Shown in pieces: positions 12,586-51,853 of a stretch of 64,000 nucleotides of DNA. This DNA comes from Eledone cirrhosa (taxonomy: Eukaryota). The notes under the pieces are model-generated. The model made no database searches. It was not told the DNA's origin and saw only the letters and a list, made by a program, of their open reading frames with translations. The stretch's first letter is position 1. Each line of letters opens with the position of its first letter. Location of the stretch: the NCBI GenBank assembly GCA_964016885.1, contig OZ024743.1, positions 369,272,001 through 369,336,000 of the forward strand, read 5' to 3'. Position numbers and translations under genes: made by a program.

Positions 12586-13195
12586 GTCAGGTCACCAGTG
12601 GTGCTACTGGTAACATGTATCCCAGTACAACCTGTCTCATGGTCGGGTCATTGGCGACTAAACTGGCAACCCCACCAAGGTTTCTTGGTGAGGAGGGTGA
12701 CTTTGGACATCCTGCAGGACTAAAAACAAAACCTGTCAAAGGGCAAAGGAGCTCTTAAGAGTCAATGGCCATCCAAAATCACCGGCAGAGATGACCCCCT
12801 TAGCCTTTGTCAAGGCAGAATTCTAGGAGAAGGAAAACTCTGATATAACACCTGCAACCCTAATGGTATCCAATGATGTTGACTTGTTCTTCTTTTTGGT
12901 AAATATCATCTTGGTTAAGAGAGTGGGACTGGTTTTGTGCAGTGCCTTTGCTCACTATAAAAGCTTCACGGCACAGGCATTGCTTTATATCTGGAGATCT
13001 CTCTGCACTTGTCTTCATATGGTACCATGGGCCCAGCACTATGTGTCAATAATTGTCACAAGTGTAGTGTTTGTACCAGAGTTTTCAAGTCGCTGGCTGG
13101 ACTAAAAAGTCACACTTGTTTAGCGCATCAGTAGGGGTTCTCCTACATGGATATAAAGTAGTGGCCGTACTCGAAAACGAGTTGGCAGCCACCAT
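12586..13195 (+). mobile_element. Non-autonomous RTE-derived short retroposon (diverged relative of 4895-5573)
   Basis: Shares 5' block GTGCTACTGG...CATGGTCGGGTC...CCACCAAG..CTTGGTGAGGAG...GGCCATCCAAAA and 3' GGCCGTACTCGAAAACGAG..GGCAGCCA; in TA/TG repeat. Confidence 0.75.
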
Positions 13196-13237
13196 ATGTA
13201 TGTATATATATGTATGTATATGTATGTATATATATAT

Positions 13238-15305
13238 TTCGAAGCTGAACAGTGGAAGATCTCCAGGTATGGATGGCATACATGCTGAGCTCCTACAATA
13301 TGGTGGTGAGAGACTCCTGCAACATCTTCACTCTTTGTTTGGCAGGATATGGGCTAATGAATCCGTACCTGAGGACTGGAGAGATGCAGTAATGGTGGTC
13401 TTGTACAAGTGAAAGGGTAACAGGAACGATTGTGGGAACTACAGAGGTATATCATTGCTTTCTGTCGTAGGGAAAGTTTTATGTAGGGTGCTTCTGGACC
13501 GTCTGCTGACACACATTGCAGATTGTGTTCTTCCTGAAAGTCAATCTGGTTTTCGTGCTGGACGCGGCACTACTGATATGATCTTCTCAGCTAGACAGCT
13601 CCAGGAGAAGTGCATGGAACAAGGCTTGGATCTGTATCAGGTTTTTGTCGATCTGACAAAAGCTTTCGATACTGTTAACAGAGATGCATTATGGAAGGTT
13701 CTCCAGAAACTTGGTTGCCCTGATAAGTTCCTTGCTTTAGTTAGGTCTTTCCATGACGACATGAAGGCTTGGGTTAATGTCGGGGGTAACATGTCGGAGC
13801 CTATCTCAGTAAAAAATGGAGTGAAACAGGGGGATATTCCAGCACCGACCCTGTTTGCCATATACTTTGCAATAGTTTTCTGTATTGCATTCAGGAATTG
13901 CGAGCATGGTGTTTACATCCGATATCGAACCTCAGGCAGCATATTTAACATCAGGCGCTTTGCTGCGAAGACAAAAGTATTTACATCAATCATAAGAGAC
14001 CTCTTGTATGCAGATGATTGCGATCTTGTAGCGCACACAGAGAGTGATATGCAGCACATTTTGAATGCATTTTCTGACGCTTGCACTGCCCTAGGTCTGA
14101 CTGTCAGTCTCAAGAAAACCGTCGTCATGTACCAACCTGCCCCTGGTAAGCAGTACACTGAACCAAACATCTATGTGTATGGCAAACGACTTGGAGTGGT
14201 TGATCAGTTTGTCTACCTGGGAAGTACTGTCAATCGATACAGCAACCTTGACAGTGAAATCTCACTTAGGATTAGGAAAGCAAGTGATGCTTTCGGAAAG
14301 CTAGAAAGGCGCTTCTGGGGTCGGCGAGACATATGCAGGAGGACAAAGGTAAAGGTGTATAGGGCATGTGTGCTCTCTTTTCTTCTTTATGCCTGCGAGA
14401 CCTGGGTCACATATCGACGCCACCTTAAGCAATTGGAGCGTTTCCATCAGATGTGTCTCAGACGGATCCATGGCGTTCACTGAAGGGACCACATCAGTGA
14501 TGTCGAGATTTTGGAAAGCTCTATGTGTGACAGTGTAGAAGCTCTTGTGCTTAAGCAACGACTCCGTTGGAGTGGTCACCTTGCCTGGATGAAGGATTCT
14601 AGAATACCAAAACAACTCTTTTATGGAGAGTTGGTTAAAGGAAAACGACCGCCACATAAACCAAAAAAGAGGTATAAGGATTCCTTGAAAGCCTCTCTGA
14701 AAGACGCTAACATCTCTGCTGATACATGGGAGAATGTTGCTGCTGATCGTAATAAATGGAGAAAGACTGTATATGAGGGAAAAGTTGCCTTTGAGGCATC
14801 TCGAATCGCATACGAGAAAGTAAAGCGGGATGTGAGGAAGGGCATTGCTGTTGCACTTCCAGACGGCGAGGGTCCTCCTATGGTGCTGACATGCAGCGTA
14901 TGTGCGAGACTCTACCTAAGCAAAGCTGGACTCGAAAGTCATCTTCGCAGTCATAAAGTAAGACCAGTGGTTGACTACCAGGCTGCTGTTGGAGATGCTA
15001 CTCATCATGCTTGCCAAACATGTGGTAGAGAATGTAAATCAGCAGGAGGGCTCAAGCGACATGCAAAAGTACACAAATTCCAACCACAGCCGACTATTCC
15101 CAGTAAATGTTTTGGTTGCCGACTCTGTGCAAGACATTTTAGATCATTGGCTGGGCTAAAAAGCCACATTCGATCGCAGCGCTGTTAGTTGCTATCGTGT
15201 GTGTGTGTGTGTAGATATGCTTTTGTGTGTGCGTGTGTGTGTATATATATGTATATTATTATTATTGTTGTTATTAATGTATGTGTGTGTGTGTATATAT
15301 GTATG

Positions 15306-15344
<39 letters not shown>

Positions 15345-15392
15345 TCTTTCTCGTGCAATGGCCATACTCGATAACGAGGGGGCAGCCATCAT
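13238..15392 (+). mobile_element. 5'-truncated RTE (BovB-like) LINE: RT plus three C-terminal C2H2 zinc fingers; one reading frame with two TGA stops
   Basis: SPGMDGIHAE, LPESQSGFR, FVDLTKAFDTV, GVKQGD, LLYADDC, LRWSGH; CSVC..HLRSH, CQTC..HAKVH, CRLC..HIRSQ. ORFs 13071, 13455 and 14511 are in the same frame. Confidence 0.96.
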
Positions 15393-15423
15393 GTATATAT
15401 ATATATGTATGTATATATATATG

Positions 15424-15493
<70 letters not shown>

Positions 15494-15651
15494 TATATAT
15501 GTGTATGTATATGTATGTGTGTGTATATGTATGTATATGTATGTGTGTATATGTATATATATATATATGTGTATATGTGTATATATGTATATATATGTGT
15601 ATATATATATATATGTGTATATATATATATGTATATATATATATATGTGTG

Positions 15652-15682
<31 letters not shown>

Positions 15683-15805
15683 ATGTGTATATGTATATTA
15701 TGTGTATATATATGTGTGTATGTGTATGTATATATGTGTATATATATGTATATATATATATATATATATGTGTATATATATATGTATATATATATATGTA
15801 TATAT
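15393..15805. repeat. (TA/TG)n microsatellite
   Basis: Read directly. Confidence 0.97.
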
Positions 15806-16429
15806 GAGAGTATTGAAGTTTGCTTGAAGCATTGTGGAGCAATAAGTAAATATCTTTAAGTCGTTTGGAAGCCTCGACAATGCAGGTGGGTGAATCTCCG
15901 GGTGGCAGGGTCCGGTGGTGGAGAGGGAGATGTGGGTGGGTGTACGTTGAGATGCGTGGTGTGTGTGGGATGTGTGAGATGTGTGGAATGGAGGGAGGAG
16001 TGGTGGGATAGAGGTGGAAATAGCAACACAGGAGGGAGTTGCCTGGGGAGAAATTTGATGGTCCCTATATGTTTCGGATTCGCATCCATCGGCTGGGGTT
16101 TTTTTCCGGGGTGGGGGAAAAGGTCTGTCGGACAAGTCCGGAAGGCGTCTTTCGCTGTTTGTGATTTTTCCCTCACCCCGGAAAAAAGGGCCCCAGTTGA
16201 TGGATGTGGGTCCGAGGTATATAGGGACTGTTGGGTCTCTCCCAGGGTGGCTCTCTCTTGTGTTGTTGTTTTTATTTTTGTCCTTTTGCTCTTCCCTCCA
16301 TTCTGCACATCTCGCACGTCTTGTACGCGCCACGCATCTCAGCGTGCACCCACTTGCATCTCTTTCTCCACCGCCGGACCTTGTTGCCCGGAGATTTGTC
16401 CATTTGCATTGTCGAGGCTTCCAAACGAC
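15806..16429 (+). mobile_element. Fold-back PLE-pLTR-like insert whose arms differ almost only by G.U pairs (candidate A-to-I hyper-edited retrocopy)
   Basis: 15860-16098 aligns ungapped to rc of 16191-16429: about 60 G.U-type differences and 3 others in 239 nt. Hammerhead-like motif at 16191-16227 after A-restoration. Flanked by TA repeats. Confidence 0.85.
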
Positions 16430-16542
16430 ATATATGTATATATATATATATGTATATATGTATGTATATATATATATATATGTATATATGTATATGTATA
16501 TGTGTATGTATATATATATATATGTATATGTATATGTATATG

Positions 16543-16573
<31 letters not shown>

Positions 16574-16682
16574 GTATATATGTGTATGTATATATGTGTA
16601 TGTATATATATGTGTATGTATATATATGTGTATGTATGTATATGTATGTATGTATGTATGTATGTATATATATGTATGTATG

Positions 16683-16715
<33 letters not shown>

Positions 16716-16775
16716 GTATATATATATGTATGTATGTATATATATATATATGTATGTATATATATATATGTATGT
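16430..16775. repeat. (TA/TATG)n microsatellite
   Basis: Read directly. Confidence 0.97.
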
Positions 16776-19116
16776 CATCATCATCATCATCATCAGGTTT
16801 AGCGTCCGTGTTCCACGCTTGCATGGGTTTGGACGGGGGTTTTCCCACTTGAGGCAAGAGTGGTTGTCTTGCTCGCATAGGACTGTCTGGCGGGTTTTCT
16901 ACAGTTGGATGCCCTTCCTAACACCAACCACATTTACAGTGTGGGGCTGGGAGGTTTTTACCGTGTTGCCTACACGGCCACATTACAGCGTGGACTGTCT
17001 GGCGGGTTTTCTACAGCTGGATGCCCTTCCTAACACCAACCACATTTACAGTGTGGGGCTGGGAGGTTTTTACCGTGTTGCCTACACGGCCACATTTACA
17101 GCGTGGACTGTGTGTTTTTTTGTCGTGACACCTACACGATCTCATTTGTTTCGGCCTGGATGTTGTGGGACCAACATAACTTTACATTGAAAGGGGCGGT
17201 GTGGATGGGGTGGAGGTGGTGGGACGGGGGTGTGTTTTGATAGAGATGCCTACTGACTGTAGTAGGTTTTTTTTACTTTGTATTTAGGTAAGGCGGGTCT
17301 TCTCTATTACTGAGTACTGCCAAAGGTCTCGGTCCAGTGACATTGTCTTGGAGAGGTGTAAGCGTGTGAGGTCGGAATTTATCAGCTCGTCCCATGTTTT
17401 TCTGGGTCTGCCTACTCCGTGGTTACCGTCTATCTTTATTGCCCTGCACTTTGTTATACAGCTGTCGTCTTTCATGCGCATCACGTGACCGTACCAACGT
17501 AGCCTTCTCTCGAGTAAACAACATCTGATCCCTCTTATTTCTAATTTTTTCCTTAGTTCGTTTATGCTTTGCCGTTCACGTATATTACTATTGCACATCC
17601 AGCGGAGCATGCAAGCTTCGTTCCTCTCTAGTCTGCGTATATCCTCTGCACACAATGCCCAGGTCTCACTGCCATGCAGCATTGCTGTTCGTATGCAGGC
17701 ATCGTATAACCTGCCTTTCATTTTTAGGGAGAACCCTCTAGCAGCTAATAGTGGTATAAGCTCTCTGAACTTTTTCCATCCAGTTTTGACTCTAGCTACT
17801 GTACTTTCAGAGCACCCTCCCCCACTGCTGATTTTGTCACCCAGGTAACGGAAGCTGTCCACTATTTCTATAGAACCCTCTGCGCAGTTGAAGGAGCTAG
17901 TATTTTGTGGGCACTTGCTGCTACTTATTGCACCAGAGCACCGGCCACATGTAAAATCTATGTTCTTAGTTAGCTTACCTGTGATCCCACTACATCTTTT
18001 ATGCACCCATACTTTGCATTTGGGACATAAGATGGAGTTTCTACCTACGCCTTTCCTACACACTGAGCATGGCCATTTCCCAGAAGGGACCGCTGCCTTA
18101 TTTTCTTTCCTACAAACTAGAACTTTAGTCTTAGCCAGCTTAATTTTAAGGCCTTTTGATTCTAGGCCGTGCTTACATGTTTGGAATTTCTTCTCTAGTT
18201 CGGTCATTGATTCAGCTATGAGCGTTAGATCATCTGCGTATAGGAGTTCCCATGGGCAGCCGGTCTTGAACTCCTCTGTTATAGCCTGAAGGGCAATAAT
18301 AAATAGTAGGGGGCTAAGAACAGAGCCCTGATGGACACCAACTTTTACGCTAAACTCTTCACTATATTCGTTGTTAATTCTAACCTTACTGACTGTTTCT
18401 TTATACATGGCTTGTATAGCTCTCACAAGCCATTCGTCAACACCTAGTTTTCTAAGAGACCACCAGATAATGGAACGGGGGACTCTGTCGAAGGCTTTCT
18501 CCAAGTCGAAGAAAGCTAAGTAGAGGGGTTTACTTTTAGCTAGGTACTTCTCCTGTAGTTGTCGTACAATGAAAAGAGCATCTGTGGTACTTTTGCCTGA
18601 CACAAACCCGAACTGCATTTCATCTAGATCAATTCTCTCTCTGATTAGTTGCGCTATTACTTTTTCCGTGACCTTCATGACCTGGTCGATTAATTTAATG
18701 CCTCTATAGTTACTCCTATCTAGGGCATCTCCTTTTCCCTTATAGCAGTTAACGATGATGCTGCTACGCCAGTCCTTCGGAACAACCCCATTCTGTACGA
18801 CTTGGTTAACTATCCGGGTGACCATGGTGTGTCCCACCGAACCAGATGCCTTCAGCATCTCAGCAACTATTTCCGAAGGACCAGCCGCCTTACCCGTCTT
18901 CATATCTTTGATTGCCTTGCTTATTGTACTACTCTGGACTAACACTGCTGGTCCCTCTATTGGGTCGATGTGGGGGAGACTGTCTTTCTCCCATTTGTTC
19001 TCCTCATTTAGAAGCCTTTCGTAGTGACACTTCCAAGCTACCTTCTTATCAGCGTCGGTGATGGCAAGTATGCCATCATCGTTAAGTACACACTTCTACC
19101 CGACAATATCACGGTT
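16776..19116 (-). mobile_element. Young 5'-truncated RTE LINE with PHD-finger insertion, 3' UTR and (GAT)n tail
   Basis: Open frame 17284-18945 extends upstream to about 19095 (AWKCHYERLLNEE). 3' UTR at 16776-17283. 5' junction runs into (TA)n. Confidence 0.95.
17284..18945 (-). CDS. RTE ORF2 fragment: reverse transcriptase with inserted C4HC3 PHD finger (N-terminal APE missing)
   Basis: KAAGPSEI, MQFGFVSGKST, FFDLEKAFDRV, GVHQGSVLSPLLF, LYADDL, CSVC-x10-CPKC-x4-H-x2-C-x14-CGRC, FRYLG, LRWYGH, GRPRKTW; 553 codons uninterrupted. Confidence 0.9.
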   Translation of the reverse strand: MLVQSSTISKAIKDMKTGKAAGPSEIVAEMLKASGSVGHTMVTRIVNQVVQNGVVPKDWRSSIIVNCYKGKGDALDRSNYRGIKLIDQVMKVTEKVIAQLIRERIDLDEMQFGFVSGKSTTDALFIVRQLQEKYLAKSKPLYLAFFDLEKAFDRVPRSIIWWSLRKLGVDEWLVRAIQAMYKETVSKVRINNEYSEEFSVKVGVHQGSVLSPLLFIIALQAITEEFKTGCPWELLYADDLTLIAESMTELEKKFQTCKHGLESKGLKIKLAKTKVLVCRKENKAAVPSGKWPCSVCRKGVGRNSILCPKCKVWVHKRCSGITGKLTKNIDFTCGRCSGAISSSKCPQNTSSFNCAEGSIEIVDSFRYLGDKISSGGGCSESTVARVKTGWKKFRELIPLLAARGFSLKMKGRLYDACIRTAMLHGSETWALCAEDIRRLERNEACMLRWMCNSNIRERQSINELRKKLEIRGIRCCLLERRLRWYGHVMRMKDDSCITKCRAIKIDGNHGVGRPRKTWDELINSDLTRLHLSKTMSLDRDLWQYSVIEKTRLT

Positions 19117-19288
19117 ATATACATATATACATATATATATGTATATATATATATGTATATATATATATAAACGGAAAAAATGAAACGATATACGTGTATA
19201 TATATATGTGTGCATGTATATATATATATATATATATATACATACTACTGTACGTCGGTATACATATATGTATGTACGTGTACATACT

Positions 19289-19323
<35 letters not shown>

Positions 19324-19434
19324 GTATATATATGTATATATATATGTATATATATGTATATATATATATGTATATATATGTATATATATATATATGTATA
19401 TATATGTATATATATATATATGTATATATATGTG

Positions 19435-19511
<77 letters not shown>

Positions 19512-19512
19512 G

Positions 19513-19543
<31 letters not shown>

Positions 19544-19566
19544 GTATATATATGTATCTGTATATA

Positions 19567-19607
<41 letters not shown>

Positions 19608-19616
19608 CTGTATATA

Positions 19617-19657
<41 letters not shown>

Positions 19658-19748
19658 GTATATATATATGTATATATATGTATCTATATATATATATGTA
19701 TATATATGTATCTATATATGTATATATATGTATATATATATATGTATA

Positions 19749-19817
<69 letters not shown>

Positions 19818-19918
19818 GTATATATATATATTTATATATATGTATATATATGTATATATATGTATATATATATATATATGTATATATATGTATATGTATA
19901 TGTATATATATATATATG

Positions 19919-19949
<31 letters not shown>

Positions 19950-19964
19950 GTATATATTTATATG

Positions 19965-19997
<33 letters not shown>

Positions 19998-20138
19998 GTA
20001 TATATATGTATATATATATATATGTATATATATGTATATATGTATATATATATGTATATATATATGTATATATATATATATGTATATATATGTATATATG
20101 TATATATATATGTATATATATATGTATATATATATATG

Positions 20139-20191
<53 letters not shown>

Positions 20192-20320
20192 GTATATATA
20201 TATATGTATATATATGTATATGAATATATATGTATATATATGTATATATATATATGTATATATATGTATATATATATATGTATATATATATATGTATGTA
20301 TATATATGTATATATATATG

Positions 20321-20371
<51 letters not shown>

Positions 20372-20524
20372 GTATATATATGTATATATGTATATATATG
20401 TATATATGTATATATATGTATATATATATATATGTATATATATGTATATATATATATATGTATATATATGTATATATGTATATATATGTATATATATATA
20501 TATATGTATATATATGTATATATG

Positions 20525-20593
<69 letters not shown>

Positions 20594-20740
20594 GTATATA
20601 TATGTATATATATATATATATGTATATATATGTATATATGTATATATATGTATATATATATGTATATATATGTATATGTATATATATATATGTATATATA
20701 TATGTATATATATATATGTATGTATATATGTATATATATG

Positions 20741-20772
<32 letters not shown>

Positions 20773-20778
20773 TGTATG

Positions 20779-20810
<32 letters not shown>

Positions 20811-20822
20811 TGTATATATATG

Positions 20823-20871
<49 letters not shown>

Positions 20872-20922
20872 GTATATATATGTATATATATATATGTATA
20901 TATATATATATGTATATATATG

Positions 20923-20971
<49 letters not shown>

Positions 20972-20982
20972 GTATATATATG

Positions 20983-21029
<47 letters not shown>

Positions 21030-21104
21030 GTATATATATGTATATATATATATATATGTATATATATGTATATATATATATATGTATATATATGTATATA
21101 TATG

Positions 21105-21137
<33 letters not shown>

Positions 21138-21170
21138 GTATATATGTATATATATATATATGTATATATG

Positions 21171-21201
<31 letters not shown>

Positions 21202-21210
21202 GTATATATG

Positions 21211-21257
<47 letters not shown>

Positions 21258-21274
21258 GTATATGTATATATATG

Positions 21275-21305
<31 letters not shown>

Positions 21306-21316
21306 GTATATGTATA

Positions 21317-21357
<41 letters not shown>

Positions 21358-21490
21358 GTATATATATATATATGTATATATGTATATATATGTATATATG
21401 TATATATATGTATATATGTATATATATGTATATATGTATATATATGTATATATATATATATATGTATATATGTATATATGTATATATATG

Positions 21491-21526
<36 letters not shown>

Positions 21527-48190: not shown

Positions 48191-48489
48191 TAAAAAAATT
48201 AACTAAATACTGCAATAAGCCATTTTATTTTATTCACTGTTCTACTGATTGTTCAAATCTAAAATATTTTAGAAACATTAGTGGACTATACACACACATG
48301 TATGTGTGTGTGTGTGAATGTATATATGTGTGTGTGTGTGAATGTATATATGTATGGATGTGTGTGTGTGAATCTATATATGGAGGTGTGAACATATGTA
48401 TGAAGATGGTTTATATAACGGCTTCACTTCATATAAAGATAAATTAATGAGAAGAGAATAAATAATTCAGAAGGAAATATTGTAGCTGC

Positions 48490-51243
48490 TGCTGCTACTA
48501 TCACTATTACTATTATTACTATTACTACTATTACTATTATTACTATTACTATTATTACTATTACCACTATTACCACTATTACTATTACCACTATTACTAT
48601 TATTACTATTACTATTACCACTATTACTATTACCACTATTACTATTACCACTATTACTATTATTACTATTACTACTATTATTACTATTACTATTACCACT
48701 ATTACTATTACCACTATTACTATTACCACTTACTATTACCACTATTACTATTACCACTATTACTATTATTACTATTACTACTATTATTACTATTACTATT
48801 ACCACTATTACTATTACCACTATTACTATTACTACTATTACCACTATTACTATTACCACTATTACTATTACCACTATTACTATTACCACTATTACTATTA
48901 CCACTATTACTATTATTACTATTACTACTATTATTACTATTACTATTACCACTATTACTATTACCACTATTACTATTACTACTATTACCACTATTACTAT
49001 TACCACTATTACTATTACCACTATTACTATTACCACTATTACTATTACCACTATTACTATTACCACTATTACTATTACCACTATTACTATTACTACTATT
49101 ACCACTATTACTATTACCACTATTACTATTACCACTATTACTATTACTACTATTACCACTATTACTATTACCACTATTACTATTACCACTATTACTATTA
49201 CCACTATTACTATTACTACTATTACTATTACCACTATTACTATTATTACTATTACTACTATTATTACTATTACTATTACCACTATTACTATTACTACTAT
49301 TACCACTATTACTATTACCACTATTACTATTACCACTATTACTATTACCACTATTACTATTACCACTATTACTATTACCACTATTACTATTACCACTATT
49401 ACTATTACCACTATTACTATTACCACTATTACTATTACCACTATTACTATTACTACTATTACTATTACTACTATTACTATTACCACTATTACTATTATTA
49501 CTATTACCACTATTACTATTACCACTATTACTATTACCACTATTACTATTATTACTATTACTACTATTACTATTACCACTACCACTATTACTATTACCAC
49601 TATTACTATTACCACTATTACTATTACCACTACCACTATTACTATTACCACTATTACTATTATTACTATTACTACTATTACTATTACTACTATTACTATT
49701 ATCACTATTACTATTACCACTATTACTATTACCACTATTACTATTACCACTATTACTATTACCACTATTACTATTACCACTATTACTATTACCACTATTA
49801 CTATTACCACTATTACTATTATTACTATTACCACTATTACTATTATTACTATTACTATTATTACTATTATTACTATTATTACTATTACTACTATTACTAT
49901 TACCACTATTACTATTACCACTATTACTATTACTACTATTACTATTACCACTATTACTATTACCACTATTACTATTACTACTATTACTATTACCACTATT
50001 ACTATTATTACTATTACTATTACTACTATTACTATTACCACTACCACTATTACTATTACCACTATTACTATTACCACTATTACTATTATTACTATTACTA
50101 TTATTATTACTATTATTACTACTATTACTATTACCACTATTACTATTACCACTATTACTATTACCACTATTACTATTACTACTATTACTATTACCACTAT
50201 TACTATTACCACTATTACTATTACCACTATTACTATTACCACTATTACTATTACCACTATTACTATTATTACTATTACTATTATTACTATTACTATTACC
50301 ACTATTACTACTATTACTATTACCACTATTACTATTACCACTATTACTATTACCACTATTACTATTACTACTATTACTATTACCACTATTACTATTACCA
50401 CTATTACTATTATTACTATTACTATTACTACTATTACCACTATTACTATTATTATTATTATTACTATTACTACTATTACTACTATTACTATTATTACTAT
50501 AACTATTACTATTATTACTATTACCACTATTACTATTATTACTATTATTACTATTACCACTATTACTATTATTACTATTACCACTATTACTATTACCACT
50601 ACCACTATTACTATTACCACTATTACTATTACCACTATTACTATTACCACTATTACTATTACCACTATTACTATTACCACTATTACTATTATTACTATTA
50701 CTACTATTACTATTATTACTATTACCACTATTACTATTACTACTACTATTACTATTACCACTATTACTATTACCACTATTACTATTATCACTTACTATTA
50801 CCACTATTACTATTATTACTATTACCACTATTACTACTATTACTATTATTACTATTACCACTATTACTATTATTACTATTACTATTACTACTATTACTAT
50901 TACCACTATTACTATTACCACTATTACTATTACCACTATTACTATTACCACTATTACTACTATTACTATTATTACTATTACTATTACCACTATTACTATT
51001 ACCACTATTACTATTACCACTATTACTACTATTACTATTATTACTATTACCACTATTACTATTATTACTATTACTACTATTACTATTATCACTATTACTA
51101 TTACCACTATTACTATTATTACTATTACTACTATTACTATTATCACTATTACTATTACCACTATTACTATTACCACTATTACTATTATTACTATTACCAC
51201 TATTACTATTACCACTATTACTATTACCACCACTACTACTACA
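48490..51243. repeat. About 2.75-kb TAC/TAT/CAC trinucleotide satellite, dominant 15-mer CTATTACTATTACCA
   Basis: Read directly; source of spurious VI/SN ORFs. Confidence 0.98.
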
Positions 51244-51853
51244 ACAAATGATTTTCCCATCCATTGACAATTTTATTGTTTGTTAATTCAACATTTTTGG
51301 GGTGTTTTGTTTTTGTTTTTGTTTTGCTCAGCCAAGTCAGCTAAGTCTGTAACTGGGATGGTTCTAGTTCGGAAGTGTTCTATTGTCATATCACTTGAGG
51401 AGTTTATTGTTAATGTTTTTTTTTTCTTATTTTTAAATAATAATTAAATAATATATTACCTTCAAACAACCTCCATTGATGCAACAAGTATAACAGCAAC
51501 AACACTGGAGCAAAAAAAAAAGTGAGGACTAAATATGAAAAGTAAGTTATGTTAGAGAGTAGTCTCTTGATATTATTAATACCATTTATTTAACAATACT
51601 TATCAATTCCTTATTACCATGACCACCACTCTATCTACATATATTCATTTATTCATGAATATTGTATAAGCATGCTTTAGTTTCGTGTTAAACCACTAAG
51701 AGATGAAGAAAGCATTTAATAACTCTTTGGCAAGGGCTGATCTGTGTCTACTGTACTGAATAAAATAAGTATGAGTTAGCTAGTTTCTTGTAATTTCCTG
51801 ACAAACATCTTCATAATCTCTCTCTCTCTCTCTCTCTCTCAAACACATACAGA

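Follow-up and report, generated by a model that had tools for sequence, protein, structure and literature searches.

The locus raises two questions: how a long foldback in the genome of Eledone cirrhosa came to carry G in place of A along one strand, and whether a hammerhead-like motif within it was the object of that change. The window, as we call the whole 64,000-nt stretch analysed, holds the foldback at 15806-16429, set between (TA)n tracts. Its arms are inverted pLTRs of a Penelope-like element (PLE), and form a duplex of ~265 bp with a predicted fold of -484 kcal/mol. The parts are as follows:

15806..16123, minus strand: left arm, antisense pLTR of the PLE; 33/85 A edited in the paired part
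15806-15859: unpaired 54-nt end of the left arm, which holds the ORF start; 1/20 A edited
16124..16165, plus strand: apical loop and inversion junction; 0/6 A edited
16166..16429, plus strand: right arm, sense pLTR without its last 54 nt; 28/68 A edited

When the arms were compared with each other, 66 of the 82 mismatches were G:T (292 aligned columns, the alignment ends taking in TA flank and loop). The sequence at 16191-16226 reads as quoted in the original prediction, with T opposite the right-arm G's. G:T pairs by themselves leave A>G versus C>T undecided, and the direction was therefore fixed from the unedited family sequence. Against the unedited C2 locus (L003), A>G accounts for 62 of the 69 substitutions, on the plus strand and in both arms, and T>C was seen at just one of 180 T's, which bears out the predicted A>G polarity. 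The junction at 16124..16165 is common to the C2 and C9 copies and absent from all other loci among L004-L050. An origin of the foldback as a MITE or DNA transposon was rejected in view of its unequal arms, the variable junctions and the linked RT/GIY-YIG ORF.

The edited strand was first taken for the sense strand of the element itself. This does not hold, as each strand of the foldback contains a sense motif and the minus-strand one is altered too. It is the sense strand of a SINE-like/LINE carrier that flanks the foldback, the components of which are listed below with their neighbours:

12588..13193, plus strand: repeat 'B', ~610 bp, SINE-like and with no coding sequence seen, forming the 5' end of the co-copied unit; 0/161 A>G versus C2
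13240..15390, plus strand: 5'-truncated LINE (RVT_1, P0002) with its 3' end at 15390; 2/541 A>G
15391..15805, plus strand: (TA/TATG)n tract from the LINE 3' end to the foldback
16430..16775, plus strand: (TA/TATG)n tract, apparent 3' end of the window's retrocopied unit
16776..19095, minus strand: separate LINE insertion (P0001, RVT_1 and PHD), outside the edited unit

LINE P0002, which from its motifs we take to be RTE-like, and B end alike: positions 13160-13193 and 15355-15390 are similar over ~35 nt and continue into (ATRT)n, and both repeats are high-copy. Such a shared 3' end would suit B as a non-autonomous partner of the LINE. At its 5' end (window 12588-12690), B has a CCAGT/ACTGG pair and a short hairpin before CTAA, details reminiscent of an HDV-like ribozyme; this candidate was rejected, there being no convincing parse by hand and no ribozyme family among the Rfam results for B. 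Elsewhere in the window, long strand-skewed (TA/TG or TA/CA)n tracts of 2.4-2.8 kb were observed at 19100-21520 and 48440-51290.

The window and C2 are 99.3% identical across 12588-15196 and have the same B/LINE junction. Their flanks differ by 16 substitutions in 2,562 bases, with A>G at 2 of 702 A's, and the low count of substitutions indicates that the copying event was recent and has presumably been inherited over generations. The unit consists of B, truncated LINE, tract, foldback and tract, in this order, and then a partial and a further B at C2, C9 and C3. These four loci lie on four contigs, and what they have in common is repeat-derived sequence only, bounded by microsatellites in which target-site duplications are unreadable; unique flanks are not shared. 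The copies begin at different places: C3 starts only within the right arm and C9 within the 3' end of the LINE, and the window copy reaches back to the 5' end of B. All parts are present only at C2, where they are unedited; this locus later acquired a second LINE within the left tract as well as two private changes, which mark it as the aged source or its sister. Among the examined loci the composite was found only at these four (a partial arm at the edge of L070 lies outside this count), and of these every one except C2 is hyper-edited.

The changes at the other two loci are of the same kind. A>G makes up 66 of 74 substitutions between C9 and C2, and 17 of 20 in C3, which has the right arm only, its partner arm being absent. 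In each copy A>G is frequent in the duplex and rare in the co-copied flanks (window 62/178 vs 2/702, p 7e-45; C9 66/178 vs 3/228; C3 17/57 vs 1/144), while editing amounts to 1/20 and 0/20 in the unpaired end and to 0/6 and 0/6 in the loop. GT is more frequent in the left TA tract of the edited copies (59/207 and 56/194 vs 35/203 in C2) but not in the right tract, a comparison that slippage confounds. With the three copies pooled, the edited share depends on the 5' neighbour, namely T 63/85 (0.74), A 57/108 (0.53), C 17/89 (0.19) and G 7/82 (0.09), and there is no preference for a 3' G. The 5'-G depletion is clear in the window (3/36 vs 58/117, p 4e-6) and in C9 (3/36 vs 63/117). This neighbour bias fits the hyper-editing reported for octopus, which is described as depleted in upstream G with a weak downstream G (PMC5625713). 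A_deamin domains, a family that also covers ADAT/ADAD, were located at four places in the genome; the one at C6:13644405-13646174 (L175, L176) lies in a stop-free 700-aa frame, and the C1 and C25 matches lie in exon-like pieces.

The confinement to the duplex bears on a deamination at the DNA level, either by ADAR on the DNA of an RNA:DNA hybrid or in a cruciform, and on a C>T change in place of A>G. ADARs are reported to edit DNA in model heteroduplexes (PMC12925331), and the G:T pairs would suit either direction, but the family sequence sets it as A>G, a hybrid would expose the entire cDNA whereas the flanks were spared, and a cruciform would be hit on both strands whereas T>C is restricted to the single case above. 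We consider this origin exceedingly improbable. An artefact of assembly or polishing is equally hard to believe: a 156-nt contig of the public sequencing run X1 corresponds to 16144-16298 with 0 other letters and 1 gap, in agreement with the edited right arm, and three loci have distinct, context-biased patterns, one of them without a hairpin. The reservation here is that no single X1 contig covers the entire hairpin and that X1 possibly comes from the very sample that was assembled.

The window and C9 have 44 edits in common and 18 and 22 private ones, respectively, so that neither copy derives from the other; the three-way patterns of the window, C9 and C3 are not tree-like. The 44 common edits exceed the 23 expected under uniform random editing. 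Site preference explains much of this excess, and a common, partly edited intermediate may stand behind the two copies. C3 must have been edited in a precursor, since its edited right arm has no partner arm, and 14 of its 17 edits are also present in the window. Within a best-hit, non-random sample of 115 distinct family arms, five (at the window, C9 and C3 loci) have at least 17 A>G or T>C, and none of the remaining 110 has more than four of either. Four exact edited-site patterns, searched genome-wide, found hyper-edited copies only at the window, C9 and C3, as patterns that catch copies edited at those sites and that other edited lineages can escape; the seven remaining matches (L101, L169-L174) have at most four A>G in the arm.

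These counts also speak to the idea that the loci arose unedited, by DNA duplication or retrocopy, and were each converted in place at a later time by cDNA or RNA of their own edited transcript. Such conversion would agree with each locus having its own edit set. However, C3 shares most of its edits with the window despite having no partner arm in cis, and no such conversion is seen at C2 or in the 110 other arms, many of them in foldbacks, and we give the idea very little credence.

Our preferred reading is that one SINE-like/LINE/foldback RNA was hyper-edited by ADAR and retrotransposed three times, giving the window, C9 and C3 copies, and we regard this as very probable. It builds on what is observed directly: the composite, the direction and strand of the changes, their confinement to the duplex and their context bias. 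The PLE left its inverted-pLTR foldback in the (TA)n tract behind B and the truncated LINE, which is the arrangement found unedited at C2. The plus strand would have been transcribed from B via the LINE piece and the foldback into the downstream B copies, and the ~265-bp duplex would then have been hyper-edited by ADAR at about 40% of A's per molecule. A reverse transcriptase, most likely that of the LINE with the B-like 3' end, would have copied the edited RNA, reading I as G, and the edited cDNAs would have been inserted into microsatellites at the three places. All three derived composite copies found are hyper-edited (3/3). Tentatively, ADAR editing might even favour rather than restrict the retrotransposition of foldback-bearing RNA, in that I-U pairs would loosen the duplex enough for passage of the reverse transcriptase, and the germline would receive heritable bursts of A>G; we think this possible, with the balance against it.

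When the genome was searched with the foldback, 40 of 2,821 candidates were scored and yielded 88 matches, both near-perfect foldbacks and single arms. One family copy has a 923-aa open frame that spans RT and GIY-YIG regions and contains the DKG motif; RVT_1 was matched at E 5.6e-10 and GIY-YIG at E 5.7e-4, the latter under Pfam's cut-off strength. The ATG of this ORF falls within the last 54 nt of the pLTR repeat, and the pLTRs are tandem or inverted, overlap the ORF start and have (TA)n flanks. Judged by its sequence, the element is a young PLE with a C-terminal EN and pLTRs. A Cys-rich linker is seen before the EN, with a spacing different from the CX2-5CxxC by which Neptune/Nematis are recognised, and the closest named protein among seven matches is from Octopus bimaculoides (53%), which by itself points to an octopod as the probable host. 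Inverted truncated PLE copies with a one-sided tail and (TA)n targets have been described (PMC8557442), and recent activity in Octopus is reported for both RTE LINEs and Penelope families (PMC13282606, PMC9115989). Many near-perfect ~600-bp PLE foldbacks with variable junctions were observed in (TA)n at L004-L030 and L043-L050, ample dsRNA substrates, and at L033 3400-4600 a PLE-like RT (YVDD motif by eye) lies directly behind a family arm.

Two sister PLE families were recognised, with 56-61% protein identity in a stretch of some 180 residues around the EN. The order of landmarks is the same in all three families: the hammerhead-like motif, a putative AG|GT donor, TGCATTG and the ATG. One sister family has the canonical CTGATGA core (one copy seen). 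The other, which is expanding (L139-L168), has CCGAAGA (U4C) in 23 of 32 motifs and the canonical CTGAAGA in six of 32; core position 4 is thus altered in two PLE families, as read from their sequences. The stems differ between families yet pair (CCC/GGG vs CCT/AGG; GGAT/ATCC vs GAGAT/ATCTC; palindromes ATATAT vs AATT). In all three families the putative 5' splice donor follows GAAA at a distance of 30-45 nt (window 16237-16250; L138, L140, L146), which suggests an intron in the pLTR; the window copy is edited here too.

The motif itself is present once in each arm of the window foldback:

16191..16226, plus strand: hammerhead homologue of the right arm, with stem I at 16191-93/16224-26
16194-16200, plus strand: core C3..A9 (CAGUUGA), followed by an extra U at 16201
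16202-05/16210-13, plus strand: stem II, with A>G also at 16209 and 16210
16214 to 16217, plus strand: G12 (16214), A13 (16215), A14>G (16216) and A15.1>G (16217), then palindromic helix III and H17 at 16223
16062..16098, minus strand: second copy, left arm, in which plus-strand A>G is read as U>C, giving the core CAGCCGA

Left-arm T's at 16072/16073 and 16079/16080 stand opposite G16217/16216 and G16210/16209. The string obtained by restoring the A's, which had been put forward as a hammerhead-like motif, is the natural family sequence, with 2,256 exact matches in the 3.0-Gb genome and none for the reversed control. The proposed search for its core was run over the family: with the rest of the pattern exact, 2,256 copies have CAGTTGA, 21 have CTGTTGA and none has CTGATGA. 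CAGUUGA (U4A, A6U) is the family norm, and departs from the CUGANGA of canonical PLE minimal hammerheads. The arms with CTGTTGA are more diverged (mean 8.6%, 13 arms) than the comparison set (2.9%, 91 arms), which is biased to young copies; the sequences suggest that the core went through stepwise decay. The C3 copy was considered as a self-cleavage product and rejected, given that its 5' end is inside the motif core, off the predicted cleavage site.

A relaxed minimal-hammerhead descriptor (CNGNNGA), drawn up post hoc with the motif already seen, matched once in the unedited 343-nt pLTR and in 0 of 3,000 dinucleotide shuffles. No hammerhead, nor any other ribozyme family of Rfam, was among the 20 matches at E<=10 (L101 1000-1700); Rfam models tend to fit minimal hammerhead forms poorly. 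Folded alone, the 43-nt motif is no better than shuffles (z -0.65). Unedited copies have the C3-G8 pair, the extra nucleotide before 10.1, a stem II with G10.1-C11.1, the palindromic 15.1-16.1, NUH and stem I, and G12-A13-A14-A15.1 is the family sequence and that of C9 and C3 as well, the window copy reading GAGG. The motif also sits in the pLTR of a PLE, where the sister families have hammerheads, and is linked to the RT/GIY-YIG ORF. As it has the traits listed for PLE minimal hammerheads in the available part of PMC4209133, apart from the core, it can be regarded as their homologue, and the architecture proposed at the outset, a minimal PLE hammerhead with a variant core, is upheld. We do not class it as a functional hammerhead in view of the U4A/A6U core, the negative Rfam result and the lowered activity described for a natural hammerhead variant with a changed A6 (PMC3088659). 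It is doubtful, on what the sequence offers, that CAGUUGA works as a variant core, be it in a dimer or together with the PLE protein. PLE hammerhead variants were reportedly the subject of work by Lunse et al. in 2017, which may list this core. Among the papers listed in our survey, we found no report of the CAGUUGA core or of U4A; the supplements of PMC4209133 and PMC8557442 may also list it.

The original prediction held further that editing inactivates the ribozyme, possibly as a host defence. Part of the former stands: GAAA>GAGG includes A14G, a standard inactivating change, described as abolishing cleavage in a canonical hammerhead (PMC4889925); even with an active family motif, the window copy of it would thus be dead. 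What lacks support is a ribozyme silenced by the editing, as the core was non-canonical before editing and the motif is locked in the foldback, where in the model stem II has a pairing probability of 0 and G10.1 is paired with the left arm at a probability of 1.0, edited or unedited. According to this model, the motif cannot fold inside the long duplex.

For a defence that inactivates an active PLE hammerhead, one may cite, besides A14G together with A15.1G in the window copy, the massive editing reported for lizard Penelope RNA (PMC5625713). Nevertheless, editing of the motif does not exceed the background (4/11 A vs 57/142 elsewhere in the paired arms of the window copy, p=1.0) and is not enriched in the other edited copies (4/11 vs 62/142; 3/10 vs 14/48), two of the three edited copies keep GAAA, namely C9 and C3, and the edited RNAs were retrocopied. 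Hammerhead mutants of an anole PLE are also reported to leave insertion in vitro unaffected (PMC11167929). The defence reading is very unlikely; the GAAA>GAGG change is collateral, and the motif is a bystander.

The interest of the locus rests on the editing fossil, not on the host-defence idea. Octopods have the strongest hyper-editing signal reported (PMC5625713), and here the unedited C2 locus, the three copies with edit sets of their own and, as an internal control, the unedited flanks copied along with them would together form a clean natural record of ADAR-edited RNA reaching the inherited genome. The copies would give single-molecule editing profiles of a germline RNA, and make it testable whether germline RNA editing writes to DNA via retroelements. 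In addition, altered cores occur in the hammerhead homologues of PLE families that expanded recently (U4A/A6U in this one, U4C in 23/32 motifs of the sister family), which bears on the question whether PLE hammerheads must cleave at all.

Hyper-editing is also known from an avian retrovirus, a case that reportedly arose in cell culture. There, ADAR hyper-edited an inverted repeat of the viral RNA, and reverse transcription fixed the changes (Hajjar & Linial, 1995; Felder, 1994, as given in the review PMC12925331). As in our case, the review describes A>G at 40-50% of adenosines, restricted to the inverted repeat and kept in DNA; unlike it, the composite in Eledone is non-viral, chromosomal and apparently inherited, and a single genome contains both the unedited locus and three copies edited independently. 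The literature surveyed, at the level of titles and abstract openings and with most subscription papers outside it, contained no report of inherited ADAR-hyperedited retrocopies of non-viral elements. The footprints of APOBEC in LTR retrotransposons (Knisbacher & Levanon, PMC4866542) are described as similarly clustered, strand-biased and fixed in genome copies, but consist of G>A from cytidine deamination of cDNA, in contrast to A>G in an RNA duplex only. With the minimal hammerheads of metazoan PLE pLTRs (Cervera & De la Pena, 2014, PMC4209133) the motif has in common its pLTR position, G10.1-C11.1, C3-G8, the extra nucleotide between 9 and 10.1, the palindromic helix III and the short stem I, but its core is CAGUUGA (U4A and A6U), whereas the core variant described there is U3-A8. 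Finally, the foldback resembles the tandem and inverted PLE insertions of Craig et al. (2021, PMC8557442) in its inverted 5'-truncated copy, the tail on one arm and the microsatellite target, and differs from those described there in having later moved as cargo of a SINE-like/LINE transcript.
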